Shown piece by piece: positions 4,522-42,585 of a stretch of 64,000 nucleotides of DNA. Positions within the stretch are counted from its first letter, which is position 1; each line of letters starts with the position of its first letter. Made by a program: the position numbers and the translations under genes. The stretch comes from Marsupella aquatica. Taxonomy: Eukaryota > Plantae > Marchantiophyta. The stretch is from assembly GCA_973895155.1 (NCBI GenBank), contig OZ316892.1, positions 22,235,168 through 22,299,167 of the forward strand, written 5' to 3'. Below the pieces are notes generated by a model that was given only the letters and a program-made list of their open reading frames with translations, did no database searches and was not told the origin of the DNA.

Positions 4522-6087
4522 CTGGAGGAGGCCGACATCGGAGCGGATAACGAGATACCAGTGGATTCCATATCCTCGCACGCTGCTCATGTTCTCTTGG
4601 AAGAATCGTAGACCTGCAATTCTAATTGAAGTTTCTGTTGGGTATTATCAATCTCTCGTCTCTTCTTCTCCATAGCATCCATTTGTAAGGGAGTTCCATT
4701 GTTCCGAATGTCGATTGCGAAATAGTAACCAAGTATCTGAGCCTCATGACTCTCAACGAGTCTCCTCCAAAGCAAGCGACATTCAGAACAACATTTTGAA
4801 ATGAATGCACAAGGGATAAGTACGGGTCCGCAAGGTCACTCATCAAAATTCCATATGATGTCTCGCTGATAGTGACAAAATCTAGGCAAGAGCTTGGCAA
4901 GGCTCGCTGAAGGAATTCTCAATAAAATTCAGCGGCCCCTCTGAGTATGAATTGTGTGCTCGGGGGTCTCACTATATGAGGACCTCCCCATCGCCTGCGA
5001 CGTTTTTAGGCCTCGGACCCCCTAAAATGTAAGAATTTTTTAAATTTTTTAACCCCTATAAAGTTGGAATATTCTTGGAATATTCTAAAAATTGGATTAA
5101 AAAGACCCTAATGTTCTTATAAGTCTCAAAATTGAATTTAAAAGACCCTATTGTTCTTCTACAAAAATTCTTAAGTCTTCCCTTAGAACCAATAAAATGA
5201 CCCTATCCTTTGTCGCACGTGATATGCCATTTTTGTGAAATAAAACCCCCGAGATTGTGTGCCTAAACATCTCCTGTCCAACGGACGGATGACAGTAGAG
5301 TAGACACCTCACTTAGAGTCAAAAAGGGCTGATGAATTAAATCATTCCGATCCAAGTCGCAGCCACAAAGTTTCCAAAAGCACCAGTAGAGATGTTTGCA
5401 TGGGTAGTAGGGTCCCGAAGAGGACTCCCGCGTTGTGAAATCGATACAAGAACAAGAGGGGAAGACACAAATCTGAATAAGATGGATCCCTTGTGTCCGC
5501 TGACTCTGTCAAGTCGAGACTTTTGCGCAGAGTCCTGTGGCATTCCCATCTTGAACCCAAAGTATTGAATCGTAGGACATCACTTCTTTCTTTGCTGAAT
5601 TCATCCTTTTTTGACCATCAGTCGAGGGACTCTCTTCGACGCCGAGTGTGCCCATTCTTGGTTTTTAGTCTCTCATCTGGATACGAGTGATGAATGTGTT
5701 TGGGATAACTATCAAGGTTAATCACAATGTGTGACGCCGCCGGTACGGCGGTTAATGAGTGATTCAGTCTAACTGCGCTCGGCACGCGCGTTAGGTGGGT
5801 CTTAGGCCGCTATTATTAGCATAATGACAGTATTTAGGTAATCATTAGGAGTAGGACATCATTAGGCAATAAAGGGGACTTCAGGTTCGGGCTGGCGGCG
5901 GGTCACTATTCGCACACCCGGGTTACGAGCGTGGAGGGGCCCCTCCCTCGGGTCCGTATAACGAACTTAAGGAAGCGGCCACTGACGCACGCTGACTCAG
6001 ACCGGCGGAGTGGCCGGTACACCACAAGCATGAGCGGTTCAACCTATGGGCGTCGAGGAGACGTCGGGGATCGACAAGCCCTCAAAG

Positions 6088-6094
6088 TATAAAA
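6088..6094 (+). promoter_or_regulatory. TATA box upstream of the LTR-internal ORF
   Basis: TATAAAA ~100 nt before the ATG at 6196, followed by a pyrimidine-rich leader. Conserved in copy A2. Confidence 0.6.
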
Positions 6095-6195
6095 GGGGAG
6101 CCAACCCTTTGTAGTGCACCAGTCCATCAGTCCGCGCGCCAGCTTCAACCCCAGCTCTCTCGTTCTCTCTAGGTCGCCACTACTATCTCCTCTGA

Positions 6196-8838
6196 ATGTC
6201 GCACACGATCCTCTCCAGCTCGGCCATTCGATTCTGGACGCAGTTCCTATCTACCGGAAGGCACTTGGCCGATTCATTGAAACACGCCAACCTGCGCCGA
6301 TACGAGATCGAACACAAATACGAGAGAGCCATCCGCCTAGCAGGACGACACCACTACGTCCTTAACTTTGACTACCCGTCTCAGAGCGAGCTTTACCGAC
6401 CAGCAGAGGTATCTGGGTACTTCTTCAACGGAGACAAATATATCGGGTTCTGGGAAGCATTGCTTTGGCTTCCGGACGAGGTCTTCAATATCCCGGGTAC
6501 AATCGACCTGCAGCGACATCACTTCGACCACATCCCTGCCCAGGTTCGGGTGGTCATTAACGGCGAGTCCAGTACCAACCGTTCGACAAGGGCGTCCGCA
6601 CTCGCTTCGGAGAACTTCTACCAGCACCTACAGAGCTTCATGGGAACTCGGCCATCAACCAACATGACCAACTCAGCCGGACCCGTACCCGTACCCGTAC
6701 CCGTGCCCATGCAACCTCAGCTTCAGCTTCAGCCTCAGCCGCAGCCTAGCCAAACCCCACCACCTATCACCCAGCCAGCACAGCTACGCTCCGTCATCAA
6801 CGCTGTGGATCTTAGCGATGACGACGAGGCTACCCCACCCTTGACCAGGCGGCCCAGAGGAACAAGCGCTCGGGGGGCCGACACTATATCGTCCCCACCC
6901 CCTGCTCTGACCCCAGGAGCGGCCCCAGCAGACAACTTGGTGACCGTGGCCGCCCCGGGCCCGTTACCAACCGCAGTGGCACTCCCCAGGCCCGATCGGG
7001 AGGATGGGGAAGTATCACCTTCCCCGAGTCAGTCACGGGGAAAGAAGAGGAAGGAATCCGCCAGTGCATCCGGGTTACCGTTGGCCACGGTAGCCGTAGC
7101 CAAGGTAACGATGCATCGCATGGGGCAAAACGTTCACAGCAACATCCTCCATCCCAAGCATGCGGTGTACCTGAAGACTCAGGGATTTGAGCACCTCGCC
7201 TCTCTCCCCTGGAACACTTGCAGGTACTACGGGGAGGACATGACAGAATTCGTCAAGAATTATGACGACGTACGTCAACAGACTCGGCTGCGGGGAAGGA
7301 ATATGTCCCTCACAGAAGAACAGCTCAAGATGATCTTCGGGTTACCCGAAGGTGACCATCGAGTCGAATCACGGGCTCCCGGGGGCAAGGGGGCCAAGTA
7401 CCAATCTTCAAGTTTTCCCTCAGAGGGATCAGTAGACAACGGGTTCGTGATGAGGACCTGCCTCATGCCCGAGATAGCTGAGCGGCTAGAGTTCCAGAGG
7501 TACGCTCTCCACATGATGGAACCCCGGGGGGAGATCTCCGCCGCCCAGGTCATCCAGGTCGAGAACTATCGACCTAGGAAATGGGCGTCGTACTTCGCTA
7601 AGAAATTCCATGAAGAGATGGAGCGGCGAAGGAAGACGCTGTACATTGGTGGGAAGGCGTATTTCGCTAGCCACATCAAAATCATTCTTGAGTGGTACGC
7701 CCGGTTTGATCGACGAACCCTTCCCCGCATCAACGTTACAAAGCTGGTCCCAGCTAGGTGGGTTTTTCCGGCATTGGAGAGACGGCCCCAACCCGAGGCC
7801 CGAAGTCCAGTGGACACGCCAGCTTCACCCACCCCACCTCCACAAATAGCTGTAATCGTAACCAAGGAGGCGTTGGAGGGGTCGGTCGTCGCAACCGTTG
7901 ATGCGACCCAACTAGCCGGGCTAAGTACAGAAGTTGGTATGGCAGAGGTCTTACCCGAACCCGGGTCTCCCAAGGACCCGCCGGTGGCAATTCCGGAGAA
8001 CCGGACATCGCTGCAGGAGGATACTCCGGCCCCTTCCAACGTTATGTCCCCAGGGCTGGACGTCACTGCCCCGGCCCCTGCGCGTGTTGATGTCTGCCCG
8101 TGCCCAAATCCGGACAGGCACAACTTGGACCACCCGGAACTCTTCGTATAGGGTACATTTCTGAACGGGCTTCTGGGAGATTTCTCTCATCAAATTGCCC
8201 GGGATACCGGGGAGTTCATGGCCCGGAAGGTAGCCTGTTTCTTCAATCAGGAGTTGGTTGCCGCCGTAAAGGCAGGTCGGGCCCAGTCGGAGGCCCTTCA
8301 GAGGATAGAGCGGTACCGGGTGGAGTCCGTGTACCTAAAGAACGAAGTGGCGGCTCAAGAGGCTGAGCTTCTGCAACTACGACCCAAGGTTGCAGCCGCC
8401 GATGAGTTGTTAGCAAAGGCGTACGCTCTTACCGCCCTAGCCGAACAGGCCAAAGCTGGGAACGAGGCCGAGATTACACGACTCCGGAACCAGATTGACA
8501 GTTTGAAGAAACAAGCTGTCACCTGGCAGAAAGACCTGGAGGAGGCCGAGGAGCGAGCCCAGCGGGACGCGACGGAGATAGCCACGCTGCAGGCCGAGAT
8601 GGCGCGGCTCCAAACCGAGGCCGAGAAGCAGGACCAGCTGGCGAGTAAACTGACGAGCGACGCCCAGCAGCTGGAGGAGGCATGTCAGGAGGCAGCAGAG
8701 GAGACGGACGCGGCGAGGCGAGAGAACGAATCTCTGCTGGACCAGGTCCAACTCCTCAAAGCGGACAATGACAGGCTTCGAAGGCAGCGGGATGGCCGTT
8801 CCCATTCGGGCGGCTCTGGCAAGCGTGCCAGGCATTAG
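6196..8838 (+). pseudogene. LTR-internal gene: N-terminal domain, plant-transposon-protein-like domain and C-terminal coiled coil; one premature stop
   Basis: ORFs 6196-8151 and 8218-8838 are in one frame, separated by TAG at 8149-8151. Copy A2 has CAG (Q) there and gives a 903-aa ORF. Confidence 0.85.
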
Positions 8839-9741
8839 CGGCGGAGTAGGAATAGATTAGGATTAGGATTGGCTTAGTCAGGCTCTTGGGACAGGCACCT
8901 GCCTTAGGTACGGCAGCGCTGCCCTGCTGTCCAGCCTGCGTAGATTAGGATCTTCTAATAAGACACAGCCGTTTTCCGGCCTGACTGTCAGCTTAGTTAG
9001 GACCTTGGTTAGCGAATCTTCGGCGGGAGGACACCCCGTTCCTCGGCTCTTAGTATTTAGTGCACCCCTCGGTAGAGGCAGGGGGGGTTTTTAGTTTCAG
9101 AGTCGGACATCCGTGGGACATGTGGGGAGTCCCGACCTCTGGGAATGACAGAGTACCAAGGGGAGGGGGTAGGACTAAGCTCGCCGGGCGAGTGCGGAGC
9201 CGGGCTCCGTTGTAGTGTGCACCCTTGGCCTTGAACCTGTGCATTCCAGGGCTGTCGTGTCAACTAAGTGTACGCATATGTTCCCTTTGTAGTAAAATCC
9301 TTTCCCATCATTTTTCCTTCGTGTAAATCGAGATGGTATGCATGTGTGCGCATATGTGTGTGGGTTTCTCGTATATGGGTGGCAGCGCCGGGCCGAACGC
9401 ACTACCCGAGACGTGCACAGGGTGCAGCCTGCGGGTAAGTGGTTGCGAGCACGGGTTGAGGACCTGTATCATCGAATCCGGATCGAAGGCGGACAGCACG
9501 AAGGCTTGGAAGCCCTTAAGCCGGGGTCGATCCTGCTATCGACTAAGGTACGTTCCGGCGGCGGAACACAAACCATACCTAGGAGGTGTCCGTATTTAGC
9601 AGTATGCGCACTTAGCGCTAGTTTACGAGAATAAGGTGCATTACGTGCTTCCCTTCCTACCCGAACCCTCAGATTTACGAGGGATGTGCCCATCTAAGCT
9701 GAAGTCTGAGTTAAGGCCGAAGCCTACGACGTGACACAATG

Positions 9742-12095
9742 TCACCGGGAGTGATTGGAAAGTTCAAGATTTGATCGAATGGTTGCTAATGAGCATTTTG
9801 TGCTAAAGGTAGAACGTACTCAAACCCCATTATGTTGTAGGAAATCAATCTCCTCTTTTGCTAGGGATGTTCCGCGAATGACTGGGAGGACCTTTGGGAG
9901 TGGGGGGAGGCTTTCTGTGGCATTTGGCTGTCCAGACTTTTGGCAACATTTGTTGTTCGGACAAAACCAATACGGAAATGGGCAGGTGGGGAATTTGCTT
10001 GTACCTGTGAAGCAATGCGCAACAACCCCACGTCCAGGTTGAGGAAGTCCCACTCATCAAATGAAAGTACCGCACACACTTTGTTCCTTAGTTACCTCTA
10101 TAATTATGCACCGCGACATCCAAGACTTGAACCAGTTGTCGAAGTGCAACGGATATGCCAGGTACGCGGTTGGACATCCACCTCAATTACCATAGGAGCG
10201 GACTAAGGTAGCTTGGAAGGATGTGACATACAAGATTAATGTTTACCCTAAACGGCACTCCATTCACGTCTCTCCATTCTTGGTACTACTATTTTCAAAC
10301 GTTCTCATTAACACCATCTATACCAAGCCTCAAACGACTTACTACTCATACGTCCTGGACAGACTCATCATTAACAACATCAAAAACTATGTAATATGAT
10401 CTTAACGTTGTTTTAGACAATGTTATATGGTGATTTTCCTGTTCAATCTACGTCCAGCATAACAACTCTATTTACGACGTTAATATGTAACGTAGTACAT
10501 TGGGACGTATGTAACGACATAGAGGACAATGTAAACTATAACCTTTGTTACTTTGTTGAATAGTTGTGTCGGAATTCCCATTGAGGATATGTTACACTTG
10601 TCCCAAGTTGTTGATGGGTACGATAAGCTAGTGAATGGAATGTTGTCTCACACATTCGTGAAAGGTGCTTATGCCGAACGCATCTTGAATCGGAAAGTTA
10701 ACTGGGCCGGATATGCCGCCGGTAAACTCAAGGGCCAGATTTTGCAGTGGGTAAGGGAGGGAAAAGGTAAGCCGAATGGGCCTCCTTGTGTGAGAAAAAT
10801 GTGTATGTAAGATCCTCCAACCCCAAAGACTTTGATGAGGAGACTAAGCTTGTCGTTTCTAGAGGCAAAGTGAGGTCTCAACCCGCAAAAATCAACTTCT
10901 CTATGGGTGTAGCAGTAGGAGGCGTTGGGGAGCTTGAATTACCTATTGCAAACACATCCTTGTTTGCTAGTAAAACCAAGGTTTCCATTCCCAACAAGCA
11001 ATCGTAGTCAATATTACTATCAATAATTGTGTCAACCGAGTGCCAAAGGCGAGAGACTTTTAACAAAATCAAGAAGGTTGAAGCCACAATGGAGGCGATA
11101 CGTGCAGCTGAACAGGATCAAGAAGCACCAAGGGCAAAACTTGCAGGAGATTGCAAAGCTAAGGAGAAGGAGGTTGTTGGACTTGATTGGGAGATTGAGT
11201 CAACAAAGAAAGTTATTGAAGAGCTCATGACTGACATTGAGCTGGAGCAGAATAGGGAAGACGAGATTGGTGAGGTATATACTCAAAAATACCTTACTCA
11301 GCTAAATTTCAGTGCAAAAAGTAGTGTTGATTGCATATTGACTTGTAAGCATCTTGGTGTAATTAAGCGATGAGTGATCTAGCTATTAGTCTTGCAATTC
11401 TACCACTTGGTTTTCTTACAATGGAACTGTTGTGTACATGAAAACAGGAGGCGGTTCAATATGCAGAAATCTTGGAAACCCAACTGAGCACTGAAAACGC
11501 CAAGACAGTGGACTTGAAGGAGCAACGGGAAAGAATCCTGAAGGACATAGCCGTAGTCAAGGAGCTCATTGTAGCCAACAAGAAGCGATTTGCAGCAGTT
11601 CCTGGGATGGTGGTCCCCTTGAAATCAATTGCTGAAGCAGTCCATCTACAATTGAAGTTACTTGAGGAGATCGAGGAAGCTCAAAAGTCAAAGTATTCCA
11701 CTTTGGCTGTTGTATTACTCACTCTGTGACCAAGGTTGACACCAACCTTTGTTCCAACAGCAGCCAGTTCAATGGCAACACAATTTACATTCTCAAGTTG
11801 TCCAGTTTGTTGTAATGGCTATCATTGCTATAATTGGGTCCCAACATCGTGTGGGCACACCTATCATCAGAGCTGTCTTTTCCCGCTGATTGGCACTTCA
11901 ATGAATAGTCCAAAGTGCTTAGCTTGCAATGCACTCTTCTCAAATGAGGGGCTATAGAGTTGGGGCTTACCCACTCATGGAGATGAGATCCGAGTTTCTC
12001 ACATTGAAGACTTAAAGATGTTGTACGGGAAACACAATATGCAACTTTTAAAACGGAGACAACTAGGCAAGCATATTCAATGTGGGCAAGGAAGG
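9742..12095 (+). pseudogene. Intron-containing gene: plant-transposon-protein-like domain, coiled coil and RING-H2 finger (disrupted)
   Basis: RING-H2 pattern CPVC..CGHTYHQSC..CLAC in 11736-11957; coiled-coil ORFs 11029-11373 and 11472-11729; KVNWAGY motif in 10553-10810; GT-AG introns (e.g. ~10162-10563); several stops and frameshifts. Confidence 0.7.
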
Positions 12096-13157
12096 GTAAC
12101 ACTAGTACATTTTAGGGCCATTTACCGATATTTACACCATCGGACGCCTTCGGGAAAATGCGACACCATTTTTGAGGTTTCCGATTCTAACTGCATTGCT
12201 CCATCCGATACTCCCATAATCGAATATGGACCATCAATCGGACCTGTTTCGGACCACCCAATACCAATACTATCGGACATTGCATATCTCCTGCAATCGG
12301 ATACATTAGGTGTTCGATGTCACAAGAGCTGGAAGAAGCCTCTCCTTGCACTAGGTGAAGATTTGTCGTCCGACAGTTGTCTGTATGAATTTGCAAGGGA
12401 TATTGCGTTAAAATTCCCATCGGACATTGAGATGGTGGAATAAACGGATGTTCTGATAGTTTTGGTATGGGAATTTGACATATAATTGGTATCGGAACAT
12501 ACAAAACGGAGGGATTTGGAAGCAATGGAGGGGTGCGATAGGAGAAGTATCGGAAGATTACTCGGGAAAGACCTAGCTTCATTGCAACATTTGGTTTCTT
12601 GTGGGGATTTTTTCTGTTGGGGTTGAGGGTGGTTCTTGGGGGAATTTATGCAATACAACATAGAGGGATTTGTTGAAGATGTTGAAGAGGTTATTTGAAA
12701 GACAATGCCAACAGAAGTAATTAACACAAGAAGGATATATGGCCACAAAGGGTACTCAAACTCCAAAAGGGAAACATACCCCAAAATGTACAAGAGTGAT
12801 AGCTATTGGAAAAGGGTGAATGGGTTACCTCGCTCATCAGCTCTAGAACTCTACAAGTGGACATGATGTGTGGGTCACTCACGTTCTGGGCCCATCGCTT
12901 CAGTCTCCCCTTTTTGTTGTTTATTGTGACTCTGGCCTTTGCTTTTGCATGCTGGCCTCCTTGTGGGAGTTGTGCTGATATATCTAGGGGGCTGCTTGCT
13001 TCCCCCCGGCCATGGGGTTTTTGCGGTCTCACCCTTTTATTATAAAAATTATTTTCCCGGGAAGTACTGGGATCACAAAAGTAAGCACATCCAACTCCTA
13101 ATCTCGTCTAAGTCTAAGGCTACGTAGTATGTCTCTATCTATCTAAGCTAGTCTAAG

Positions 13158-16100
13158 TCAAAATGGAGCATGTCGTCCCTTCCTCTTTTTGGAACGAGTC
13201 CGAGGTGGTGGGGGTACAATACTAGTCTGGGCAGGAGCCTGGGTGAATGGGGGCTCGTCCATGGTGACTTGGTCCACAACATCTGGCCCCTGTGTAGAGG
13301 TCATAGGAGGCACTGGACCCACGCCACCACCACCACCACCATGTGATGCTAGGGAGTCATGGGAAGGTCCGCTCCCCCCACTTGCATGGCAAGTATGAAA
13401 GGAAGCTGCACCACCCCCACTAGCCCTGTTGCCAACGGACTGCCGTGATGTACCACCCCCCCCGCTCCCTCCTGAATGGCCAAGGGCAATATGAGCACCC
13501 CCAGTCTGGGCTGAAGGGTGAGAGACACCAACTCCACCGGCTGTACTCCCTCCTAACTGGCCAGGGGCAGGTCGACGACCCCCAGTGCGGCCTGAGTGGT
13601 GAGAGACAACACCAACACTACCTCTACTCCCTCTACTCCCTCCTGACTGACCCTGAGCACTAACACCGCCCCCAATGCGGCCTGAGTGGTGAGACACACC
13701 ACCAACACTAGCTCTACTCCCTCCTGACTGACCAGGAGCAATAACATCGCCCCCAATGTGGCGTGAGTGGGGAGAGACACCAGCAACACCACCAGTCCCT
13801 CCTGACTGGCCAGGGGCCCTAACACCACCCCCTGTCGAGCCTGAGTGACGAGAACCTCCCGAGCCACCCCCATCTGCACCAGAGTGCTGTCAGCCTCTAG
13901 AACACCCTTCCCCATGAGGCTCTAATCGGCCAGACTCACCAATAGCATGTCGCTCATCTCGCGACACATGCCGAGTGCCTCGAATATCAGCTCTGCCACT
14001 AGCCCGTGATCGGCGCCGGGGACCCTCACCACCTGTGCCAGCAGCCCGTGAGTCACGTCTGCCACTAGATCCAACCCCTATGGCTCTAGGCTGGTGAGGG
14101 GTCCCACTAGCACCACCCCTACTGGTCCTAGTATGTGTTGCACGAACATCCGCTATGGGGCCACGACGGGTCGACTGAAGAGCCCTAGCACTACCCCTAA
14201 CTGTATCGGACCGGCAAGGAGGGGGTATGGCCACAATCCCCTCCTCTGGGTCCAACAACTCTGAATCAGATTCGCCGGATCCCCCACTGCTATGCCCTGA
14301 GCCCTCGTCCGCCAAGTCCTCACCCTCCGATCCCTCCTTGTTTGAGCCCTGCATATATCCAACCAACCACCCAAATTAGTATACGCTTTTTAGAAATAAA
14401 TTTCAACACCCCATTAAGACATTGCATTAAAAATAATCTCCTTACCGAACCCAGCTCCTCCTTCAAGTGAATCCGAAGAGCCCGTGGTCCTTGTTTCTTA
14501 GCCAACTCCCTCTCTTCTGGCAATATTGGTCGCCCATGCTCGCGCTCCTGCCCCCCTCAAAAAATGCACCGGCAACCAAATTAGTCCCAATTAGTGCCAC
14601 CGGGTCACACCCCAATTAGATCCACACTGGATCACCCCCAACATGTTTTAAAATGGTCAATGGAACCAACCACGATAATCCGCAAGGGTAACCGTCAAAA
14701 AATTTGAAAATTCAAACTATTCGATTACTTTCCGATTGTTTGTTCGATAGCATCAAGGTCGGATTGGAATCGGACACGACGTCCAAAAAAGCCATAGTAG
14801 TATTTCCGATTGTCTTTCCGATTCTATTACTATCGGACCATAATCGGAAATAGGGCCCCGACAAAAAAAGATGGAGTTATCGATCGCATGCATAGCGCGC
14901 TTGCAGGGCCCGCACGGCTTGACAATAAGAGGGGACTTTGGGCCGGGGCTCTTCAAGCAAAGAAGGGCCTTAGGTGATCAAGTGAATGGAGGGAAGAGCT
15001 TGGAGAGAGGAGGTGGAGTCTACTTACAAATTCTGCCTTGAGATACAACGACCCGCCCTGCCCCATTCTGTGAGTGACTACTGGCCTGTTCTCAACTCGA
15101 ATCAATGCCTTTTGCATATGTGAGGGAGGGTCCCCAAGCTGAATTGACTTTGCATCCCAATGTTGCAGGTTTTGATCAGCATGGCGGGTGTCAATAGTCT
15201 CCCCTGCCTGGGCCCTCACTGCAAGGACTTCTAGCTCAGCTTGCCAGTATCTCCTTGCCTGCCAGGCTTGAACCTGCAGCTCGGTCTCAATCCAAGCTGG
15301 CCATACCTCCACAGGAATATCATTTGGGCACCCTCTTTGCCTGATCACCTCCTCACTGTCCTTGCACTCACCAAGGTACTTCCTCAGCTTCTCCCTGATG
15401 TGATTCCTTCTGTCTGCAAGGGATAGACTGATTTTCTTGTTTAAGAACCTGTCATCAATGAATGAGCCATTGCAACAACGTTCCTTCACTTGCTCACGAA
15501 CTCTGAACTTCTCTTCTTCCTTTTTCTTCCCCCAGTAATCTAACACTCCAAAATGGGATCTAAGTACTTGCCCAAGCTGACTCCTGAAAAGATTATAGCT
15601 CTTGGCCCTCGGAGCTCCTCCCTCATTCAAATAAATTTTTGGCCTCTTGCTTCTCTCCTCTGCTCGCAGCTTCTCCTCCTCGGCTCTTTTCCTATCTGCA
15701 GCCCGTGCCTCTCTACGTAAGGCCTTCTCTCTCTCTCTTGTGGTGAGAGGGCCTCCATAGGTACAGTCTCCTTCTCCTCCCTTCTCTTCCTCTTCTTCTC
15801 TTTCTCCCTAGTACGCTGCCTCTCCTCAAATGTTTTCTGAGCTTCAGCAAGAACAGTGCTCCTAGAAGAGTCTAGCAATCCTTGTGTCAATGCAACCACC
15901 TTTTGCGCATGCTCTATGGAGAGCCCTACCTGCTTATGGAAAATTGCAGCCATGATCTCCCCAAAGTCTTCTGATGGCCCTGCTCCATCCCCAGTAGCTC
16001 CTCCAGCCCCACCTTGTCCGGCTCCTGACCCTCCATCTCCACCATCTCCTTGCCCTCCAGCTGTTCCTCCGAATTCTATTCCTGTCCCTGCTCCTGCCCC

Positions 16101-16175
16101 TCCCCCAGCCCCTCCATCGCTCCCCTCCATAGCCATTTGCTCTTCGCTGCCGTGCGCCACGTGCTTGTTTTTCAC
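13158..16175 (-). pseudogene. TnpA-like (Ptta/En/Spm, Transposase_24-like) gene with Gly/Ser-rich C-terminal exon; frameshifted
   Basis: ORFs 15627-16175 and 14953-15630 (CPNDIPVEVW...HRMGQGG), then exon pieces 14320-14550, 13890-14366 and 13158-13697. Transcribed divergently from the transposase. Confidence 0.6.
13480..13870 (-). repeat. Coding tandem repeat of ~70-90 bp (SHHSGRxGG..GQSGGS units)
   Basis: Repeated CTCCCTCCTGACTG...GCCTGAGTGGTGAGA blocks; the repeated peptide is visible in ORF 13158-13697. Confidence 0.7.
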
Positions 16176-19100
16176 AAAGACATGAACTCCCGACTGTTTT
16201 TCGATGCAAAGCCCGACTCAAGTGCGTTCGCACTTAGGTCGGGTGCCCTAAAAATGCTTCCGACTACTTATCCGATTCTATTTACATCGGAAATTCCCAT
16301 TAAAACTGTATCGTAGATTTATCGGATGAACATCGGACCCCTCCTGCGAAGCACTAACCTAAGGCTCTTCCGATATAGAGAACATGGTAAATGAAGTTGG
16401 TCTTGCTTTGGATGACACTACGTTGGTTCTATGTGTTGGTCAGGGGTTCTACGGATAGGGCGGACCATCAGAGCCGTGGTATCCCAAGTCACATGCATGA
16501 TTTTGGAGGTGGTTGGTATGTATATAAGGGTTGCGGGTTATTGTTAAAGGTTACTCCAAATTTTTAGGGTGGCATTTAATTTGGAGTGCCAAATACAATT
16601 TGACCTAGCTAACCTTATATATACATCTTGCATTCGGAATTTTGCAGTTCCTTTTTGCGGAGGGTTAGGTTATTGCGATTATTTTGGGTCCATTTTTGCA
16701 ATGCATCATGCACAGTGAGAGCCCGCACATCTGAAAGGTATTCCCTTCTCTACAATGTGAGCTATATTTACTATGAAGCATTATTTATAATTACTATGAA
16801 TTATTGATATTGGTGTACCCCAATTAAGCTCAAGCCATGGGGAATCACTCGTTGGATTATTAGAACAAGGTGCAAACAAATGAAGGTTCTTTTTAATCTT
16901 GTTGGTGTAATAATTATAATCAAAAATTTGTACTAAAGGCGTTTAAAAATCCAATTTTGGTAAAAATATTAGTTTTTATATTCAGCAAGGTATTTAAAAA
17001 TTTGTCAAAGCCATATAATCAAGGGTACAAGGGTATTTTTAATTGAATTTATTTTTTAATTTATTTTTTCAAATTTCATTGGTTTGTTCTCACGTGTTTT
17101 AGGGGTTTTACTCTAAGTGATTCCCCAGGGAGCTCAAGTGTACTTGTGCAGCAATTGCAGATTTGTCTTAGAATATAATCTAAGGCCAAGATCCTAGTCG
17201 GCACTGCAAAGCGCGGGTCTCATTCAGGTATTATTGATATGAAAACATCTCTATGTTTTTTTTGCCTTCATATTTATTGCATTGGTCCCCTGGGCCCTCA
17301 CTCTTACTATATTAAGTGAACCCCCCTGAGAACAGACACCCCCGTGTACCCCTTCTTAATATTTTTGTTCACAAAAAAAAATCCCTTGTTAATGTAAAAA
17401 CATTATTTTTTCCTATAAAAATTTATCCTTTTGTAAATTATAACAGAGTTTTTCAAGGAATTAAAAAACCCTTGAATTTTTAAAAATTGTAAATATCATA
17501 CTGAAACATAAAAGATTCTATTTTGCATAGGGGAATATTATGTTATGCTGATGTTCATGGTACATATTTTATATAGATCATAACAAAATTAGTACTAAAG
17601 ATTATAGTTCTTCCTAGAGTATATGACTATAACTCAGGCAACTTGTAGACCTCATAGAGATCAACTGAACTAGTACAAAGGCATTATTATGCTATGCTAT
17701 ATCCTTGGAGGAATAATTGCATATATACTACTTATGTAAACTCCAATTGCTAAATTATTCTATCTTGACTAAGAATGGTATGACATCAACCATTAACACC
17801 AAATGATAAGTAGAGTTTTTGGCAACTTCTTTCATGCAACCTGACACATCAAACCACACATTAATCATATATATTCTAGACACAAAGTACTAATAATACA
17901 AAAAATGACTACTGAAAATTGTGGAGAGTAATACCATCAAATCTCCTTTGGCTGAAATTGTTACTTAGACATGGTGGGTAATTTTCCTGCCATCTCTACA
18001 ATCAAACAACTGTGAGCACCGGGTACCCCCCCCAACCCAATGATCAAGGGAGTACACCACCCCACACACAAACACACCTGGCCTCATACCTGGCCATTTG
18101 ATTCGAGGGAATTCAAAAGTAATATTGTTTGTCTATGTGGGATTGATTCATGGGTCCCCATCAATCCCACAACCCCAAACGAGTTGGGCCCCAAAATCCT
18201 GGCCCAACATTTACTTAACTCCCAACTTAACACATGCGGGTAAACAAGTCTACCATGCAAGCCCATGAAACCAAACTTGCCTTAAGAGGATAAATAATTA
18301 AATGTCTAATTTACTATATGGACATGTGTGCCAATGAAGTGATGACATGTGTGCCAACCATATAGTGACACATGTCCTTGGCATTTTAGGTACCCTTGCA
18401 TAAGATTAATGTGACATGTATTTGATAAGAGCCTTATTACTAATATTGTGATGAATGTATATACATGGATGTTGCCTACTTTAAAAAACATTATAAAAAT
18501 TAGTTTGCATTACATTAAAAATACCCTTGCGTTGTTCGCACGTCCTCCCCGCATTAGTAACGCTGAGGGCCCAGGGCATTGGTCTTACATATTTAATTCC
18601 CACAATGGCACATAAAAGGTTATTTTTGTATGGGTGATGGACAGATGTCTTCTTCCGAGAGTTCAGAGTCGGATTCTGACTCAACCTCTTCATCTTCTGA
18701 GGGGGACATTCCTCCCCCCCTCCGAGGCTTCAATGTCCTCCTCCTCTAGGACCTATTCCATGTTGGTGTGTCCGATGTAAAGGCATGGTGGTTCGTCAAG
18801 CCTGGGAAGCCATTGAGCATATTGAGAACTATGGCAAACACGAGGGCAATTTACCAGGATATTCTACTCGCGAGGTATGCACAATTAATTGCTCTTGGAG
18901 ACATTGACATGTACAATTTGCCACATTGCACCCATACATTTATTAATTGTTTTTTTTTGTGATTGAATAGGTGCCTCGTAGGACCCCTCCTCCATTGGTC
19001 TCTAATGACTTAAGTATGGGTAAATACGCTTTTGGCTGGTGCAAGAGAGTTGCTTGCATCATCATCAGCTCCCTCTCCATCTAGCCCCCCGTGTTCAGCC

Positions 19101-19397
19101 AGAGAGTGTAGCAGTTCCATCTAGGGTTGGACGCACCCGAGCACGTTCCCAGAGACAACATCGTCGTTATGAACCCTTGCCAGGCACTCATGAGACTGAG
19201 GAGCAAGTTGTAGACCGTACTCTTAGAGTGCCACCAGGAGAGGACTAGTATGTGGAAGTGGAAGGGAGGTTGGGGTTGTCATATGTCACCGGGAAGGCAT
19301 TGACAGTGTTGAAGGATTTCTCGTCTGAGAGATTCAAAATACCCCCTGGCCTAACCACTGATACCCCTATCCACATATATGGGGTCACCAATGGATA

Positions 19398-19895
19398 GTG
19401 AAGGCATCTTCCCTTGGCCCTAACATAGGATTTGGGGTGTTTGCCTTGGAGGACATTGTGGTCCCGCCCAAGCCGTGGCCCCGAGGTTATGATGGTGAGC
19501 ACCTATTTCCATACATTGGTCCTGTGTATACTTCAAAAGGTTGGAACATTCTATTGCGCCAACACCCATCGTGGGGTGTCTATGCATTGCAAATGGATTC
19601 TGATCCAGATGAGCTCATACGGAGGCCTTGGCATTCTCGGATGATTGATGGCGACCCTGTTCGCTCCGATAATATAGTTGGGTACATCAATAGTACTCGT
19701 GGTAGAGGGAGAGGACTTAGGCCTAATGTAGAGTGGATTCAGATATTTGGTCCACCTAGAGAGCCTTACTATGTAAAACATATGGATGATCATGTCATGA
19801 CTGTAGCCATTACAACCATTAGGGCTGGCCAGGAGTTGTTTTGTGACTATGAGTGGGATAGGCCCAAGAAAGCATTGCTTTCTCGCCCCATGTAG
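19398..19895 (+). CDS. SET-domain protein carried inside the CACTA element (upstream exons from ~18645 contain stops, so probably a pseudogene)
   Basis: SET motifs GFGVFALEDI, GYINSTRG...PNV and IRAGQELFCDY. Confidence 0.8.
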   Translation: MKASSLGPNIGFGVFALEDIVVPPKPWPRGYDGEHLFPYIGPVYTSKGWNILLRQHPSWGVYALQMDSDPDELIRRPWHSRMIDGDPVRSDNIVGYINSTRGRGRGLRPNVEWIQIFGPPREPYYVKHMDDHVMTVAITTIRAGQELFCDYEWDRPKKALLSRPM

Positions 19896-20130
19896 GGCAG
19901 ACATATATGTATATATACCACCTTTTTGTTTAACATAAAATACATGATACAGGTTTTCAAACTAAATTGGTTAGTTGTGTAAGTCAATCTTTGATCAAGG
20001 TTTGAAAGTATACTAGTAGAATGTGAAAAGAGAATTGTAATTTTGTGGGGAAACCAAAAAGCCTATACCTTTAAACACTTGTCTCATTGTGGCCCTTCTA
20101 ATATAATATGTATGTTTGTGAAATGTTAGA

Positions 20131-23100
20131 ATGCATATGTTCAACCAGATATGGGGGTATTATCACGAGCAATGCGGCAACACCTTGTTGAGGCCATGGG
20201 TGATTGACGTAGGGCTCAAGCATCAGAGAATGAAGATGCCCCTCCTGAGCATGTGTCTAATGCCACCGAAGATAGACTTGAGGAGGAGAGGGCCATGGAT
20301 GATCTTATGCACCAGTTCTATGACGTGGAGGATGGTGACCATGATATGGGTGATGCATGTGACACCAATGCACATCCTCATGGTGACAATCCTTCACAAG
20401 GTTCTTCCTCTAGACAATGGGAGGAAGCTCGTGACCATGCGCAAACACGAATTTTTGAGGGGTCACAACTATCTTGGCTCTCAGGAATAATGTTATTGTT
20501 GAACTTGCAGCAAAGACATGGAGCAAGCAATCTCCTTCTTGATGATCTCTTCAGGACCTTGCATAGTCGTATTTTGCCAGAAGGGAACTGCTTGCCTAGT
20601 TCATGGAAAGCGGCAAAAAAGGTGTTGAAATCCATAGGCCTCAAATACAAAGTCATACATGCTTGTGTGAATGATTGTGTTTAGTTCAGGGGGGACACAA
20701 AGATGCCACTACATGTCCTACATGTGACCAACCGAGGTATCTAGAGGACATGCTGACTGGAAAAGTAGCACAGAAGGTCATGAGGTATTTTCCTCTTATC
20801 CCCAGATTACGGCACCAGTACCGATGTGCAGAGTTGGCTGAGTATATGGTGTGGCATTCCAAGAACCGGTCAGATATGAGTTCAGATTGGCCAACCATGC
20901 GTATGATGGTGGACTCACCTGCAAATAGGTTTGTGGAGGACTGATGGGGTGACTTCAAGACAGACCCACGTCATGCACGACTAGGTTTGGCATCAGATGG
21001 GATCAGCCCCTTTGCATTGGCCGGGAAGGCCCAACCATACTCAGTTTGGCCAGTAGTCCTTACAAATTACAACATCCCTCCATGGATGGCCATGAAGAAA
21101 GGTCATTTGCTGCTCTCAATGATTATCCCAGGCCCCAAGCAAGTAAAAAAGATTGATGTTTACTTGCAACCATTGTTGGAGGAGCTTCAACAACTATGGA
21201 GGGGAGTGGATTGCTATGATGGTCGAGTGCTGACGGGTGGTTTACCTCATGAATTTAAATTAAAAGCCATCGTTATGTGGACCATACATGATCTTCCTGG
21301 TATGTTAAAATATACCTTCCCCAATATTATGCATGGTTTTTTATGGTAGATAATACACTATAGGATAATGTTATATATAAAAGTTTGCCTGGCTATTGTT
21401 TAATGTATTGATTGTGTGTGTTGTAGGGTTTGGATATATCTCTGGGTTGCAGACATCAGGATACCGAGCCTGCCCAACTTGTGGTCCTGATTTGGAGGGA
21501 GTGGCACGCCCTAAGTCTACCACCCCACGGAAGATAGTTTACATTGGTCACACAAAGTATCTCCCCCCAGAGCATGAATGGAGGCGTGACCCATTCTTAT
21601 ATGACACGGATGATGGCCAACCAGACACACGCCCTCAACCAGTGCCAAGGGATCCACGCTATTGGAAGGAGGTATGGGATAGAGTGACAGACCCAGATGA
21701 TCCCTTACCATTGGCCCGGTGTGGCATGACTCGTTTGTCTGCATTAATGTCAAAGCTGCCATATTGGGCTGAGATGCCAATTAACCATTTGTTTGACCCT
21801 ATGCATATTGAGGGGAACGTTGGGAGGTCATTGATTCGCCATCTATACGGAGAGAAAGACAACAACTGGAGAGAGAGTTGTGAGGAGATGGGGATGCATG
21901 GTCCTCATGGTTTTTGGCCATCTATGGATCCCTCTAATGGCCCCCTTACTATTCACCCTCCTTGGGTATTGACCAGAGGCGAGCGGATTGAGTTCCGCAA
22001 TCGTATAGGGTCAATGAGGCTTCCTACGGGCTACAGGGCCAATCTGCGCAAGGCATTTGGGGGACCAGACTGTCCACGTTGGCCAGCTTTCTTGAAGACC
22101 CATGATTACCATTGTCTACTACAACATGTCATTCCAGTGGCCATCATTGGATTGGGTAGTGAGGATCTTCGTGATGCCCTGTGGTCATTAGGTAAGCTCT
22201 TGAGGTGGGTGTGTCAAAAAGAGGTGAATGAGGATGAGATTGCAGCTATGGACCTGTTTGGAGTGGAGGTATTGTGCAAGTTGGAGAGGGCACTCCCTCC
22301 TTCATTCTTTAATGGCCAAGTTCACTTCCTCCTACACCTAGTGCATGAGGTTGGCATTGCAGGGCCGGTACATTGTCTTTGGATGTACTGGGTAGAGCGG
22401 TTTATGGGAGTGATGAAGTCATATGTGTCAAATCGTGCGAGAGTGGAAGGTAGCATCACTGAGCGTCATCTTGGAGCAGAGAGCATGTTTTATTGTACAA
22501 ACATTGTAGCTACACTTGATCCCAGTGCACCAAGGGGGTGGATAGACGAGGCATCAAGGGAAGCAGACTTTGAAGATGACCGTCTTACAGGGGCAAAGGG
22601 AGAATGACTTTTGGGCTCAGCTGAGCGCCTTCAAGTCACTACATTTATGTTGTATAACTTGCTTGAGATTGTGGGAGATGGACAACTTTTTATGAGGAGG
22701 AAAAGGCAAATAGTCATCGGCCATGCATCTTCCCCAAGTTTGTCCCATACATGAGGGCAAAGTTGACCGAGATTGATGCCTTGTTGGAGCAAGGGGAGAG
22801 CGTGTCAGACTTCCCTTTGGTTACAGACAGCCTTCGCACCTTGGTTCATGGACCATTACTCACGGTGACAACTTGGACCGCCATGTGGTCAAAGGGAAGG
22901 CATTTTTGTGTGCAACGGCTTGATGATAAGAGGGCAGCTACACAGGATTGTGGGGTCATGGGTTGGTTCACCCAAGATTCACAAAGTAGCACATCTGATA
23001 GGAATCCAATACGCTCTACAGTGGCCCACTATGGCAAGATTGAAGAGATATTGACAGTGCATTATCATGCACACACCACTTTGGAGGAGGTGGTGTTGAA

Positions 23101-23383
23101 GTGCAAATGGTTTTGGATGAACCTTGTTGGCCATAACCGAACTTGCAAAAAGGATGCTTGTGGGTTCACACGGTTGAAGACAGGTGCAAATAGTGTCATT
23201 AGCTCAACTTGGAGAACCTCTGATCCATTTGCATTCCCCCACCATCTTGAGCAGGCCTTCTATCTTCCGTATCCCGATGATCCTGAGTGGTCCATTGTCA
23301 TGACTTATATTCCACGATCACGATCCATCATCCAGGAGCGACCCAATGTGGTTGTAGTTGAAGATTTGGACCCCGAGCCTTGA
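20131..23383 (+). pseudogene. CACTA TnpD-type transposase (Transposase_21, DUF4218, DUF4216-like), broken by stops and frameshifts
   Basis: Motifs ASDGISPF, WPVVLTNYNIPPW, IIPGPKQ, IDVYLQPLLEEL, WTIHDLPG, LKTHDYH, LPPSFF, WMYWVERFM and NRARVEGSI. In-frame GT-AG intron at 21300-21426. Confidence 0.95.
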
Positions 23384-24681
23384 GGTCCTTGCTAGCTAGT
23401 GTAACTTGGGATTAATCGCGTAGGACCCCTCCATATGTTTATTTTTACCGGCATTATATATATCATTGTTGTATTTCATGTTCCCTCTACTATGAAAGGG
23501 ACCAGATTTCTTAATAAAGTTATGAGTATTCGTTTTCCACACCATATCTGATACAATGAACATCGCATAATTGTCGAAAACATCTTACCTTAATTCCAAA
23601 ACCTTGTCCGATTCAGTCTGCATCGGACCCCTCTTAACAGTTATCGGATACTTGTCCGATACATTTCCGTTACTAATCTTATCGGAAGACATCCGATTCT
23701 AAAACTAACGGAAGGAAGGACCGTTTACATTTGCATCGGAAGGTTAACATGCGATTCAAAAAGAATGGCAAATTGCGTTACTATTGAAGTCGGACAATTC
23801 CGACGCATTTCCGATTTGTTTAGTGTCACGTCGTAGGCTTCGGCCTTAACTCAGACTTCAGCTTAGACGGGCACATCCCTCATAAATCTGAGGGTTCGGG
23901 CAGGAAGGGAAGCACGTAATGCACCTTATTCTCGTAAACTAGCGCTAAGTGCGCATACTGCTAAATACGGACACCTCCTAGGTATGGTTTGTGTTCCGCC
24001 GCTGGAACGTACCTTAGTCGATAGCAGGATCGACCCCGGCTTAAGGGCTTCTAAGCCTTCGTGCTGTCCGCCTTCGATCCGGATTCGATAATACAGGTCC
24101 TCAACCCGTGCTCGCAACCACTTACCCGCAGGCTGCACCCTGTGCACGTCTCGGGTAGTGCGTTCGGCCCGGCGCTGCCACCCATATACGAGAAACCCAC
24201 ACACATATGCGCACACATGCATACAATCTCGATTTACACGAAGGAAAAATGATGGGAAAGGATTTTACTACAAAGGGAACATATGCGTACACTTAGTTGA
24301 CACGACAGCCCTGGAATGCACAGGTTCAAGGCCAAGGGTGCACACTACAACGGAGCCCGGCTCCGCACTCGCCCGGCGAGCTTAGTCCTACCCCCTCCCC
24401 TTGGTACTCTGTCATTCCCAGAGGTCGGGACTCCCCGCATGTCCCGCGGATGTCCGACTCTGAAACTAAAAACCCCCCTGCCTCTACCGAGGGGTGCACT
24501 AAATACTAAGAGCCGAGGAACGGGGCGTCCTCCCGCCGAAGATTCGCTGACCAAGGTCCTAACTAAGCTGACAGTCAGGCCGGAAAATGGCTGTGTCTTA
24601 TTAGAAGATCCTAATCTACGCAGGCTGGACAGCACGGCAGTGCTGCTGCACCTAAGGCAGGTGCCTGTCCCAAGAGCCTGA

Positions 24682-27393
24682 CTAAGCCAATCCTAATCCT
24701 AATCTATTCCTACTCCACCGCAAATGCCTGGCACGCTTGCCAGAGCCACCCGAATGGGAACGGCCATCCCGCTGCCTTCGAAGCCTGTCATTGTCCGCTT
24801 TGAGGAGCTGGACCTGGTCTAGCAGAGATTTGTTCTCTCGCCTCGCCGCGTCCGTCTCCTCTGCTGCCTCCTGACATGCCTCCTCCAGCTGCTGGGCGTC
24901 GCTCGTCAGTTTACTCGCCAGCTGGTCCTGCTTCTCGGCCTCGGTTTGGAGCCGCGCCATCTCGGCCTGCAGCGTGGCTATCTCCGTCGCGTCCCGCTGG
25001 GCTCGCTCCTCGGCCTCCTCCAGGTCTTTCTGCCAGGTGACAGCTTGTTTCTTCAAACTGTCAATCTGGTTCCGGAGTCGTGTAATCTCGGCCTCGTTCC
25101 CAGCTTTGGCCTGTTCGGCTAGGGCGGTAAGAGCGTACGCCTTTGCTAACAACTCGTCGGCGGCTGCAACCTTGGGTCGTAGTTGCAGAAGCTCAGCCTC
25201 TTGAGCCGCCACTTCGTTCTTTAGGTACACGGACTCCACCCGGTACCGCTCTATCCTCTGAAGGGCCTCCGACTGGGCCCGACCTGCCTTTACGGCGGCA
25301 ACCAACTCCTGATTGAAGAAACAGGCTACCTTCCGGGCCATGAACTCCCCGGTATCCCGGGAAATTTGATGAGAGAAATCTCCCAGAAGCCCGTTCAGAA
25401 ACGTACCCTGTACGAAGAGTTCCGGGTGGTCCAAGTTGTGCCTGTCCGGATTTGGGCACGGGCAGACATCAACACGCGCAGGGGCCGGGGCAGTGACGTC
25501 CAGCCCTGGGGACATAACGTTGGAAGGGGCTGGAGTGTCCTCCTGCAGCGATGTCCGGTTCTCCGGAATTGCCACCGGCGGGTCCTTGGGAGACCCGGGT
25601 TCGGGTAAGACCTCTGCCGTACCAACTTCTGTACTTAGCCCGGCTAGTTGGTTCGCATCAACGGTTGCGACGACCGACCCCTCCGGCGCCTCCTCGGTTA
25701 CGTTTACTGCTATTTGTGGAGGTGGGGTGGGTGAAGCTGGCGTGTCCACTGGACTTCGGGCCTCGGGTTGGGGCCGTCTCTCCAATGCCGGAAAAACCCA
25801 CCTAGCTGGGACCAGCTTTGTAACGTTGATGCGGGGAAGGGTTCGTCGATCAAACCAGGCGTACCACTCCAGAATGATTTCAATGTGGCTAGCGAAATAC
25901 GCCTTCCCGCCAATGTACAGCGTCTTCCTTCGCCGCTCCATCTCTTCATGGAATTTCTTAGCGAAGTACGACGCCCATTTCCTAGGTCGATAGTTCTCGA
26001 CCTGGATGACCTGGGCGGCGGAGATCTCCCCCCGGGGTTCCATCATGTGGAGAGCGTACCTTTGGAACTCCAGCCACTCAGCTATCTCGGGCATGAGGCA
26101 GGTCCTCATCACGAACCCGTTGTCTACTGATCCCTCTGAGGGAAAACTTGAAGATTGGTACTTGGCCCCCTTGCCCCCGGGAGCCCGTGATTCGACTCGA
26201 TGGTCACCTTCGGGTAACCCGAAGATCATCTTGAGCCGTTCTTCTGTGAGGGACATATTCCTTCCCCGCAGCCGAGTCTGTTGACGTACGTCGTCATAAT
26301 TCTTGACGAATTCTGTCATGTCCTCCCCGTAGTACCTGCAAGTGTTCCAGGGGAGAGAGGCGAGGTGCTCAAATCCCTGAGTCTTCAGGTACACCGCATG
26401 CTTGGGATGGAGGATGTTGCTATGAACGTTTTCCCCCATCCGATGCATCGTTACCTTGGCTACGGCTACCGTGGCCAACGGTAACCCGGATGCACTGGCG
26501 GATTCCTTCCTCTTCTTTCCCCGTGACTGACTCGGGGAAGGTGATACTTCCCCATCCTCCCGATCGGGCCTGGGGAGTGCCACTGCGGTTGGTAATGGGC
26601 CCGGGGCGGCCATGGTCACCATGTTGTCTGCTGGGGCCGCTCCTGGGGTCAGAGCAGGGGGTGGGGACGATATAGTGTCGGCCCCCCGAGCGCTTGTTCC
26701 TCTGGGCCGCCTGGTCAAGGGTGGGGTAGCCTCATCGTCATCGCTAAGATCCACAGCGTTGATGATAGAGCGTACCTGTGCTGGCTGGGTGATAGGTGGT
26801 GGGGTTTGGCTAGGCTGCGGCTGAGGCTGAAGCTGAAGCTGAGGTTGCATGGGCACGGGTACGGGTACGGGTACGGGCACGGGTACGGGTACGGGTACGG
26901 GCACGGGCCCGGCTGAGTTGGTCATGTTGGTTGATGGCCGAGTTCCCAAGAAGCTCCGTAGGTGCTGGTAGAAGTTCTCCGAAGCGAGTGCGGACGCCCT
27001 TGTCGAACGGTTGGTACTGGACTCACCGTTAATGACAGCCCGAACCTGGGCAGGGATGTGGTCGAAGTGATGTCGCTGCAGGTCGATTGTACCCGGGATA
27101 TTGAAGACCTCGTCCGGAAGCCGAAGCAATGCTTCCCAGAACCCGATATATTTGTCTCCGTTGAAGAAGTACCCAGATACCTCAGCTGGTCGGTAAAGCT
27201 CGCTCTGAGACGGGTAGTCAAAGTTAAGGACGTAGTGGTGTCGTCCTGCTAGGCGGATGGCTCTCTCGTATTCGCGTTCGATCTCGTATCGGCGCGGGTT
27301 GGCGTGTTTCAATGAATCGGCCAAGTGCCTTCCGGTAGATAGGAACTGCGTCCAGAATCGAATGGCCAAGCTGGAGAGGATCGTGTGCGACAT
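24682..27393 (-). CDS. Intact 903-aa LTR-internal protein (N-terminal domain, Pro/Gln linker, plant-transposon-protein-like domain, coiled coil)
   Basis: Uninterrupted ORF; motif LPW...EFVKNY...RLRGRNMSLTEERLKMIFGLP.G; heptad-rich C-terminus. Confidence 0.85.
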   Translation of the reverse strand: MSHTILSSLAIRFWTQFLSTGRHLADSLKHANPRRYEIEREYERAIRLAGRHHYVLNFDYPSQSELYRPAEVSGYFFNGDKYIGFWEALLRLPDEVFNIPGTIDLQRHHFDHIPAQVRAVINGESSTNRSTRASALASENFYQHLRSFLGTRPSTNMTNSAGPVPVPVPVPVPVPVPVPVPMQPQLQLQPQPQPSQTPPPITQPAQVRSIINAVDLSDDDEATPPLTRRPRGTSARGADTISSPPPALTPGAAPADNMVTMAAPGPLPTAVALPRPDREDGEVSPSPSQSRGKKRKESASASGLPLATVAVAKVTMHRMGENVHSNILHPKHAVYLKTQGFEHLASLPWNTCRYYGEDMTEFVKNYDDVRQQTRLRGRNMSLTEERLKMIFGLPEGDHRVESRAPGGKGAKYQSSSFPSEGSVDNGFVMRTCLMPEIAEWLEFQRYALHMMEPRGEISAAQVIQVENYRPRKWASYFAKKFHEEMERRRKTLYIGGKAYFASHIEIILEWYAWFDRRTLPRINVTKLVPARWVFPALERRPQPEARSPVDTPASPTPPPQIAVNVTEEAPEGSVVATVDANQLAGLSTEVGTAEVLPEPGSPKDPPVAIPENRTSLQEDTPAPSNVMSPGLDVTAPAPARVDVCPCPNPDRHNLDHPELFVQGTFLNGLLGDFSHQISRDTGEFMARKVACFFNQELVAAVKAGRAQSEALQRIERYRVESVYLKNEVAAQEAELLQLRPKVAAADELLAKAYALTALAEQAKAGNEAEITRLRNQIDSLKKQAVTWQKDLEEAEERAQRDATEIATLQAEMARLQTEAEKQDQLASKLTSDAQQLEEACQEAAEETDAARRENKSLLDQVQLLKADNDRLRRQRDGRSHSGGSGKRARHLRWSRNRLGLGLA

Positions 27394-27494
27394 TCAGAGG
27401 AGATAGTAGTGGCAACCTAGAGAGAACGAGAGAGCTGGGGTCGAAGCTGGCGCGCGGACTGATGGACTGGTGCACTACAAAGGGTTGGCTCCCC

Positions 27495-27501
27495 TTTTAT
27501 A
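27495..27501 (-). promoter_or_regulatory. TATA box for the A2 LTR-internal ORF
   Basis: TATAAAA on the minus strand, at the same position as 6088-6094 in A1. Confidence 0.6.
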
Positions 27502-28207
27502 CTTTGAGGGCTTGTCGATCCCCGACGTCTCCTCGACGCCCATAGGTTGAACCGCTCACGCTTGTGGTGTACCGGCCACTCCGCCGGTCTGAGTCAGCGT
27601 GCGTCAGTGGCCGCTTCCTTAAGTTCGTTATACGGACCCGAGGGAGGGGCCCCTCCACGCTCGTAACCCGGGTGTGCGAATAGCGACCCGCCGCCAGCCC
27701 GAACCTGAAGTCGCCCTTATTGCCTAATGATGTCCTACCCCTAATGATTACCTAAATACTGTCGTTATGCTAATAATAGCGGCCTAAGACCCACCTAACG
27801 CGCGTGCCAAGCGCAGTTTAGACTGAATCACTCATTAACCGCCGTACCGGCGGCGTCACATTTAGTATCGGACGGCTGAGCTCTTGCAATATCGGAGCAT
27901 CGGAAAAATGCTAAAAATGTACTAGTGTAAGTAGATCCTATCCAACAAATGGAGCATGATGAATTCTTTAGATTTGGTCTCTCAGTTGCTCTATTAGTGA
28001 TGCATGTAGTTATTCCCTCAAGCGTTATCTCATCCATATGTAGTTTTTGTAACTGTCCTTTCCGAACTTGCTCGGTTTGACTGTGATCCTAGTATGGAAT
28101 AATCACGGTCAAACCAAGCTAGTATTTCTAGAAGTTAGAAGCACTAGTGACAATTGAACTCTGATATTCCCACTGCTGATTGAAGTGCATTGTTTGCGGG
28201 ATTTCAG

Positions 28208-31743: not shown

Positions 31744-32659
31744 GAGTCTTGCTATGATAGTCTGGTGTTAAGGGCATAAATTGGTATTTCTCGGCCTTCA
31801 CAACATCCCTTCGTGATCCTCAGGTACAAGGAGATGGTTTTGGCACCCATAGTGACGTTTTTGGTGTTAAGACCCATGTCAATCGCGTGACAGTGAGTGT
31901 ATGGCACCTCTTTCTCATTGAGCAAGTCAGGACACATACACTCAAACTTTGTGTTCCTGTTATTTGATAACCACAGATGGTCAAAGTGGTGGACCTTGCC
32001 ACCCAGCGCCCTCACCAATCCCAGCACTCACGCCTAAGTGCCCCTAGTGCTTGAATGCCTCCACAAAATACCTTGAGCACAACCTTGTGCCTCTTGCATC
32101 GCCAACGGCCCCTCCCATACAAAGCCGCACTTGCTCTCCAACACGACCGCTACTCAATGGTCCTCACTGTCTGCACAAGCAACCAAGCACCTTGGTAAAT
32201 AACCCTTCAGGATCTAGAACTTGCCAAGTCTAGCATCCTAACTCAAGCTCAACAGACATTGGTAAATAGGTCAACAATAGGTCCTCCCGACGCCATGCCA
32301 TAAGCTGGAACCAGAACCCACACCCATTGTTCGTCTAGAACAACTCCTTCCTTGGGCGCGGTCCGGGTTCCTCCTTGTACCTATCCATCACCAGCTGACT
32401 ACCCTGACCCCAGTACATGCTCATGGCCCAAATAGCGTAGCTTGTTCTAAAGCTTGTCCCAACACGCCGGGACCAGAATGGCTCTGACTCTAGCAACCAA
32501 CTTATGGTTTGCCCCACTGATGGTCTAGGGGCCAAGCACCCTTGGAAGTCAACCTCCACACCTACTTGGCCTTGCCTCCCCAACGCAAGCTCCATTGGGA
32601 GATTGGACGTGGCTTGGCTGTTGTTCGACAGGATTTGGCAAGTGGGCGAGATAACACCC

Positions 32660-42521: not shown

Positions 42522-42585
42522 TATACTAAGGTGTTCCTAGGGTGCCTTCCTGCTTTACCCACTTAACCGGCCGAGTGATTCCTAT

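Follow-up and report, generated by a model that had tools for sequence, protein, structure and literature searches.

Analysis of a 64,000-nucleotide stretch of the genome of the liverwort Marsupella aquatica (assembly GCA_973895155.1, contig OZ316892.1, positions 22,235,168 to 22,299,167; hereafter the window) revealed two near-identical 4-kb units, A1 and A2, each containing an open reading frame (ORF) of about 900 codons. According to the best explanation, to which we assign a probability of about 0.7, both are solo long terminal repeats (LTRs) of a Ty3/gypsy retrotransposon family carrying a whole accessory gene within its 4-kb LTR, and the gene likely encodes a nuclear, VANC21-like protein that would keep the LTRs transcribable. 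In the life cycle of such elements, reverse transcription copies the U3 part of the 3' LTR to both element ends, and recombination between the two LTRs leaves a single LTR with its target site duplication (TSD).

Two Gene-Bearing Units Without an Internal Region

The initial annotation of this DNA, made from the sequence alone, described two TG..CA units with different 5-bp TSDs and therefore independent insertions; the exact ends and both copies of each duplication were confirmed (Table 1). In a self-comparison of the window, the units form an inverted pair (5730-9737 vs. 27860-23823, 97.4% identity), with termini reading TGTGAC at the start and GTGACA at the end, i.e., TG..CA with a short inverted repeat. 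They differ by 75 substitutions (59 transitions and 16 transversions), one indel of 30 bp in a Pro-Val repeat and two indels of 1 bp. A large share of the transitions (38 of 59, vs. a background of 26%) lies in CG context, the pattern expected of methylated DNA. The inverted layout is incidental, since the outer flanks form no duplication; CACTA transposase pieces and a SET-domain ORF occupy the interval between the units.

The self-comparison found no terminal direct repeats within A1 or A2, only chance matches of 13-17 bp, and no primer-binding site (PBS), polypurine tract (PPT), reverse transcriptase, integrase or gag was found in or beside them. The reported lack of gag-pol also held in tblastn searches of the window, where gag and pol of a complete element, B, matched B alone, and 120 pol relatives gave no match outside 42400-48800. 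TRIM, LARD and TR-GAG identities were ruled out, as no paired terminal direct repeats surround an internal part.

Table 1. Positions of the main features within the window.
Feature	Position	Strand	Details
Solo LTR A1	5730..9736	+	4007 bp, TG..CA
Solo LTR A2	23824..27860	-	4037 bp, TG..CA; sits within CACTA-type element
TSD CAATG of A1	5725..5729 (left), 9737-9741 (right)	+	
TSD TTTAG of A2	23819..23823 (left), 27861-27865 (right)	+	
A1 copy of LTR gene	6196..8838	+	Interrupted by a stop codon in frame (8149-8151), ahead of the coiled coil
A2 copy of LTR gene	24682..27393	-	Open, 903 codons/aa
Conserved globular domain of A2 protein	25804..26433	-	AlphaFold2 predicted local distance difference test score (pLDDT) 92.9; top solved-structure match VANC21 (PDB 9lnj)
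TATAAAA	6088..6094	+	LTR position 359/360, 108 bp 5' of ATG
TATA-like TATTTAG and G-rich block	9054..9085	+	Common to ORF-less LTR C
First TTAG(G) cluster	5791..5866	+	Non-coding U3 of A1, 6 TTAG; candidate binding sites, putative function
Second TTAG(G) cluster	8857..9094	+	A1, between ORF end and second TATA-like site
Small hairpin and conserved block	9553..9581; also 31560-31587, 38156-38183, 49029-49056	+ (first site)	Common to LTRs A, B and C
C unit	29794..31802	+	2009 bp, TG..CA; no long ORF, no matching TSD
Element B	37914..53470	-	TSD TCCAC; LTR pair of 4684 bp each (99.6% identity), both bearing the homologous ORF; also PBS-like site, gag, pol, PPT
PPT and pol end of B	42598..42620	-	Junction common to A-type LTR starts in public contigs

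A Complete Sister Element and Traces of a Parent

Element B is a complete Ty3/gypsy retrotransposon with reverse transcriptase, RNase H and integrase; its 5' LTR is followed by a TGG-type primer site and its 3' LTR preceded by a purine tract, and no chromodomain match was found in it. Its LTRs differ at 20 sites, and each has an open frame of 1233 codons with 28% identity to the A ORF across 182 residues (E 3e-19). The pol frame (42586-42620) crosses the PPT and stops a few codons into the 3' LTR, which leaves B without a 3' internal region. With the PPT overlapping the pol end, all sequence 3' of pol would count as U3, which would explain why the gene stands in both LTRs and is kept through solo formation. 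By identity, the named proteins closest to B come from Calypogeia fissa (66-67%), and in a 28-sequence tree (midpoint-rooted, free of labelled references, built from sequences picked by similarity) B groups with two Calypogeia proteins and one further protein at support 1.0, apart from the angiosperm hits; angiosperm relatives of B pol that carry PF20167 also exist. This affinity to Calypogeia points to a likely liverwort host. B is itself inserted, in reverse orientation, in a diverged B-type LTR (32660-37913 and 53471-54015; 83-89% alike), which has an internal tandem duplication of 1.47 kb, a broken ORF and a right end apparently truncated at 54015.

The A unit, whole or partial, occurs in six of the nine sequencing runs listed (none recorded as RNA), under four organism codes. 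Contigs matching the A2 region number 8166 and 12242 in two runs, pointing to an abundant family, with contig depths in this run comparison giving no copy number. Contigs of four runs (X3, X4, X5 and X6) were aligned to the LTR start at 27780-27905, 21 of the 35 matches being listed. Among those listed, the flanking letters beyond 27860 disagree (agreement 0.43 in X3, 0.41 in X4 and 0.53 in X5), which indicates many unrelated insertion sites. Among the same listed matches, the X3 majority line from 27861 follows the PPT junction of B (42599-42620) in register (20 of the first 22 letters in 10 contigs; 3 of 8 letters past letter 22), as do X5 (12 of 13 letters, 3 contigs) and partly X4 (8 letters in register, 9 contigs), and X6 gave no such junction.

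The PPT-joined contigs are A-type, because the LTR starts of A and B have just 10 of 37 letters in common; possibly they represent A subfamilies. The X5 pieces differ from the A LTR at 3/37, 3/44 and 11/79 letters. A B-like PPT at the A LTR start implies that LTRs of A type are found in 3' position, preceded by a PPT, with the ORF in the same sense as pol, and the first in-frame codons of the A LTR (CDA) are the same as those at the pol end of B. Of the parent with PBS, gag-pol and PPT that was initially proposed, these contigs give the PPT side; the 24 entries listed of 882 in one contig comparison of the A2 region included no terminal ones. The solo-LTR origin put forward initially is supported by these junctions in contigs of two organisms, together with the ORF-bearing 4.7-kb LTRs of the full element in the window, and A1 and A2 likely arose by LTR-LTR recombination. 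A single contig of run X2 joins the A LTR start to the ORF of another A LTR (27857 to 24812), which suggests a nested insertion within the family.

The LTR Gene and Its Product

A TATA box and a long ORF had been reported for each unit, with A2 intact, and both were verified; the TATAAAA is likely the promoter of the LTR gene. The A2 protein comprises an N-terminal region, a Pro-rich linker with KKRK at 293, a globular domain (~321-520), a second Pro-rich linker and a coiled-coil-like segment (740-875). The C-terminal end of the A1 frame lies 13 codons short of that of A2. An env-like identity is not supported, as no transmembrane helix was found (top 19-residue hydropathy of 1.33, in the Pro-Val repeat, for A2 and 0.98 for B).

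The A1 and A2 genes show 22.5 synonymous and 24.5 non-synonymous differences (ratio of non-synonymous to synonymous proportions, pN/pS, 0.35-0.46; p 0.0006-0.01), and the B gene compared with its diverged B-type neighbour gives a pN/pS of 0.26-0.36. The gene is under purifying selection between lineages, while the elements replicate, and shows no sign of constraint once inserted.

The match to VANC21 extends across the whole globular domain at 9-10% identity. Viral structure models gave no match to the domain at E<=0.001. There was no direct profile match to PF20167 (Transposase_32) or PF03078 (ATHILA ORF-1) at the curated cut-off; 6 of 74 relatives match PF20167 with E 1.6e-7 to 6e-3, all below cut-off, and remote comparison with the two families yielded atlas scores of 0.83-0.89, hhalign being not significant. 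The structural model predicts that the core of the LTR gene folds like the plant anti-silencing protein VANC, and the ORF likely encodes a VANC/ATHILA-ORF-1-like nuclear protein. VANC membership is excluded by the carrier, an LTR rather than a VANDAL (MuDR) DNA transposon. Likely the protein shares a structural group with VANC and PF20167, although its carrier sets it apart from the former and the profile cut-off from the latter, and it may work like VANC. Two relatives of the domain from Riccia sorocarpa (P0163 and P0176) are annotated as fused to DDE_Tnp_4 pieces, so Harbinger-type DNA transposons may be further carriers of the domain.

Comparison with Known Systems

VANC proteins are described as dicot-specific and MuDR-borne (PMC13547354). 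VANC21 of VANDAL21 is the best fold match of the LTR protein; it likewise has a predicted coiled coil, and short motifs cluster in the non-coding parts of its element as the TTAG candidates do in A, but VANC21 resides in a eudicot DNA transposon, and DNA binding and demethylation, demonstrated for VANC, are putative for the LTR protein (PDB 9lnj; PMC5735166, PMC13547354). ATHILA ORF-1 and Transposase_32 proteins are likewise encoded by an extra ORF 3' of pol in the same sense and are predicted to be nuclear (PMC6317226, PMC7264820, PMC11728184), and they have a weak transitive sequence link to the LTR protein. The Athila extra ORFs are, however, internal, between pol and the 3' LTR, and so are lost with solo formation, whereas the gene of A and B lies wholly in the LTR (PMC7264820, PMC6317226). 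The large-LTR non-chromoviruses (OTA; Phygy and Selgy) resemble the present elements in LTRs of up to ~5 kb, the lack of a chromodomain match and, as in B, a gag-pol that occupies nearly the whole internal region, but the available part of that account does not describe their LTRs as coding (PMC6317226). The sag gene of mouse mammary tumour virus also lies within the LTR, so that each of the two LTRs carries a copy, and the genome contains solo LTRs of this virus as well; that system is a mammalian retrovirus with a superantigen, as opposed to a plant Ty3/gypsy element with a 4-4.7-kb LTR and a likely nuclear protein of 900-1200 aa (PMC12548423). Our literature search, of incomplete coverage and excluding supplements, found no description of an LTR-gene layout in plant retrotransposons.

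LTR Anatomy and a Proposed Mechanism

The second TATA-like site reported near 9054 does exist, but its heptamer TATTTAG is not unique, occurring also at LTR positions 102 and 3864 of A1. The last 700 bp of A contain five blocks collinear with C, the first being this site with its G-rich neighbour. The site is likely the ordinary LTR promoter; placement of the U3/R border there is uncertain, as a TATTTAG copy 144 bp from the A LTR end, where B has TATAAAA, competes with it. On this sequence comparison, the A tail would be the ordinary promoter-R-U5 part, with the gene in U3. TTAG is enriched in A and B, and the non-coding parts of A hold no tandem array; the non-coding TTAG clusters are candidates for the target motifs of the protein. 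Tandem repeats of 26 bp and 16-33 bp containing TTAG occur in the start region of C, and the reverse strand of the hairpin block in B and C resembles a splice donor (AG|GTATGT).

The accessory gene may have entered U3 either through a shift of plus-strand priming to the tract at the pol end or by insertion into U3, C showing what a short LTR without the gene would look like. The gene would have a separate promoter, with the TATA box at LTR position ~360, and genomic RNA would start behind the second TATA-like site. By analogy with VANC and VANDAL, the protein could oligomerise via its coiled coil, bind short motifs of the non-coding LTR (the TTAG clusters being candidates) and counter silencing by DNA methylation, a tentative scheme to which we give slightly less than an even chance.

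Alternative Explanations

The initial annotation also considered LTR-only units that integrate directly. Such units could derive from one-LTR circles, for example, rather than from recombination. Direct integration would fit the presence of both window copies as solos with clean TSDs, as well as the many different sequences that flank the LTR start (agreement 0.41-0.53), but its main argument, the missing parent, is lost since PPT-joined copies exist. The unit, moreover, has none of the PBS, PPT and terminal direct repeats required for its own reverse transcription, and recombination is established to yield exactly such a structure, leaving direct integration very unlikely. The inverted arrangement, with transposase pieces in between, could also suggest a single 22-kb DNA element (5730-27860) with A1 and A2 as its inverted terminal repeats, a possibility of practically negligible weight: it is refuted by the separate TSDs of the units, the outer flanks CAATG and TTTAG mismatch, and contigs of two runs join both A2 flanks without A2.

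With a solo-LTR origin retained, the protein could still be a different nuclear accessory factor (transcription activator, integration tether or MAIN-like self-limiting silencer). A common fold proves no function, the silencing factor MAIN has the same fold, ATHILA ORF-1-type proteins are described as poorly characterised in function, and relatives bear the transposase fusions noted above. Such another nuclear role appears less likely, considering that the sole solved-structure match is a DNA-bound anti-silencing factor and that the protein parallels VANC in its build, with a globular domain, variable linkers and a coiled coil, as do the motif clusters in non-coding DNA. The overall ORF divergence equals that of non-coding LTR sequence, which speaks against strong constraint on the gene.

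In a bolder version, A2 and other open solos would function as genes with their own promoter: a self-activating VANC-like anti-silencing gene, having entered the LTR along with its binding sites, would supply its factor in trans to the whole family, and solo formation would no longer neutralise the element. A2 does retain the TATA box, open frame and tail, family contigs run into thousands in two organisms, and a VANC transgene acts on related copies (PMC5735166). We nevertheless consider this version improbable. The A1 frame is broken, the CG-biased transitions between the units follow the pattern of methylated DNA, and the two LTR ORFs of B, identical at insertion, have since acquired 14 non-synonymous and 2 synonymous changes, i.e., no constraint after insertion. 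With a stop-creating share of substitutions of ~3-4%, the ORF would stay open after 10-25 changes with a probability of 0.4-0.7, so that the open frame of A2 is no evidence of function. Of the initial proposal that solo formation preserves an expressible transposon gene, retention of the gene in the LTR stands, while the functional cassette is unsupported, the selection signal being that of replicating elements; the two solos are most likely silent passengers.

Implications

Solo-LTR formation is usually seen as stripping coding capacity, which in A-type LTRs it cannot do. If open solos did work, the main retrotransposon-deletion route of the host would scatter counter-silencing genes, and VANC-type counter-defence would operate in retrotransposons far beyond eudicots. 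The layout is old and stable, given that A and B, whose proteins are 28% alike, have both retained an LTR-borne gene on which purifying selection acts. What the Athila-type extra ORF does is a long-standing question, and a VANC-like fold in a liverwort LTR offers a direct test for sequence-specific anti-silencing factors of plant LTR elements, with gene and candidate motifs in one 4-kb unit. In practical terms, genes of this kind are listed in gene catalogues as host proteins without a name, and elements of this size may escape LTR finders that apply length limits.

Other Features of the Window

The SET-domain ORF between A1 and A2 (E 2.5e-6) lies directly upstream of broken CACTA Tnp2/DUF4218/DUF4216 pieces on one strand (19362-23383) and is possibly a captured methyltransferase domain. 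At 61712-62518, an ORF for a Ulp1-type protease (Peptidase_C48, E 3.4e-12), 3' of several unnamed ORFs and 40-44-bp tandem repeats, is likely DNA transposon cargo. A tandem array of ~407-bp units, ~80% alike, occupies 1253-3480.
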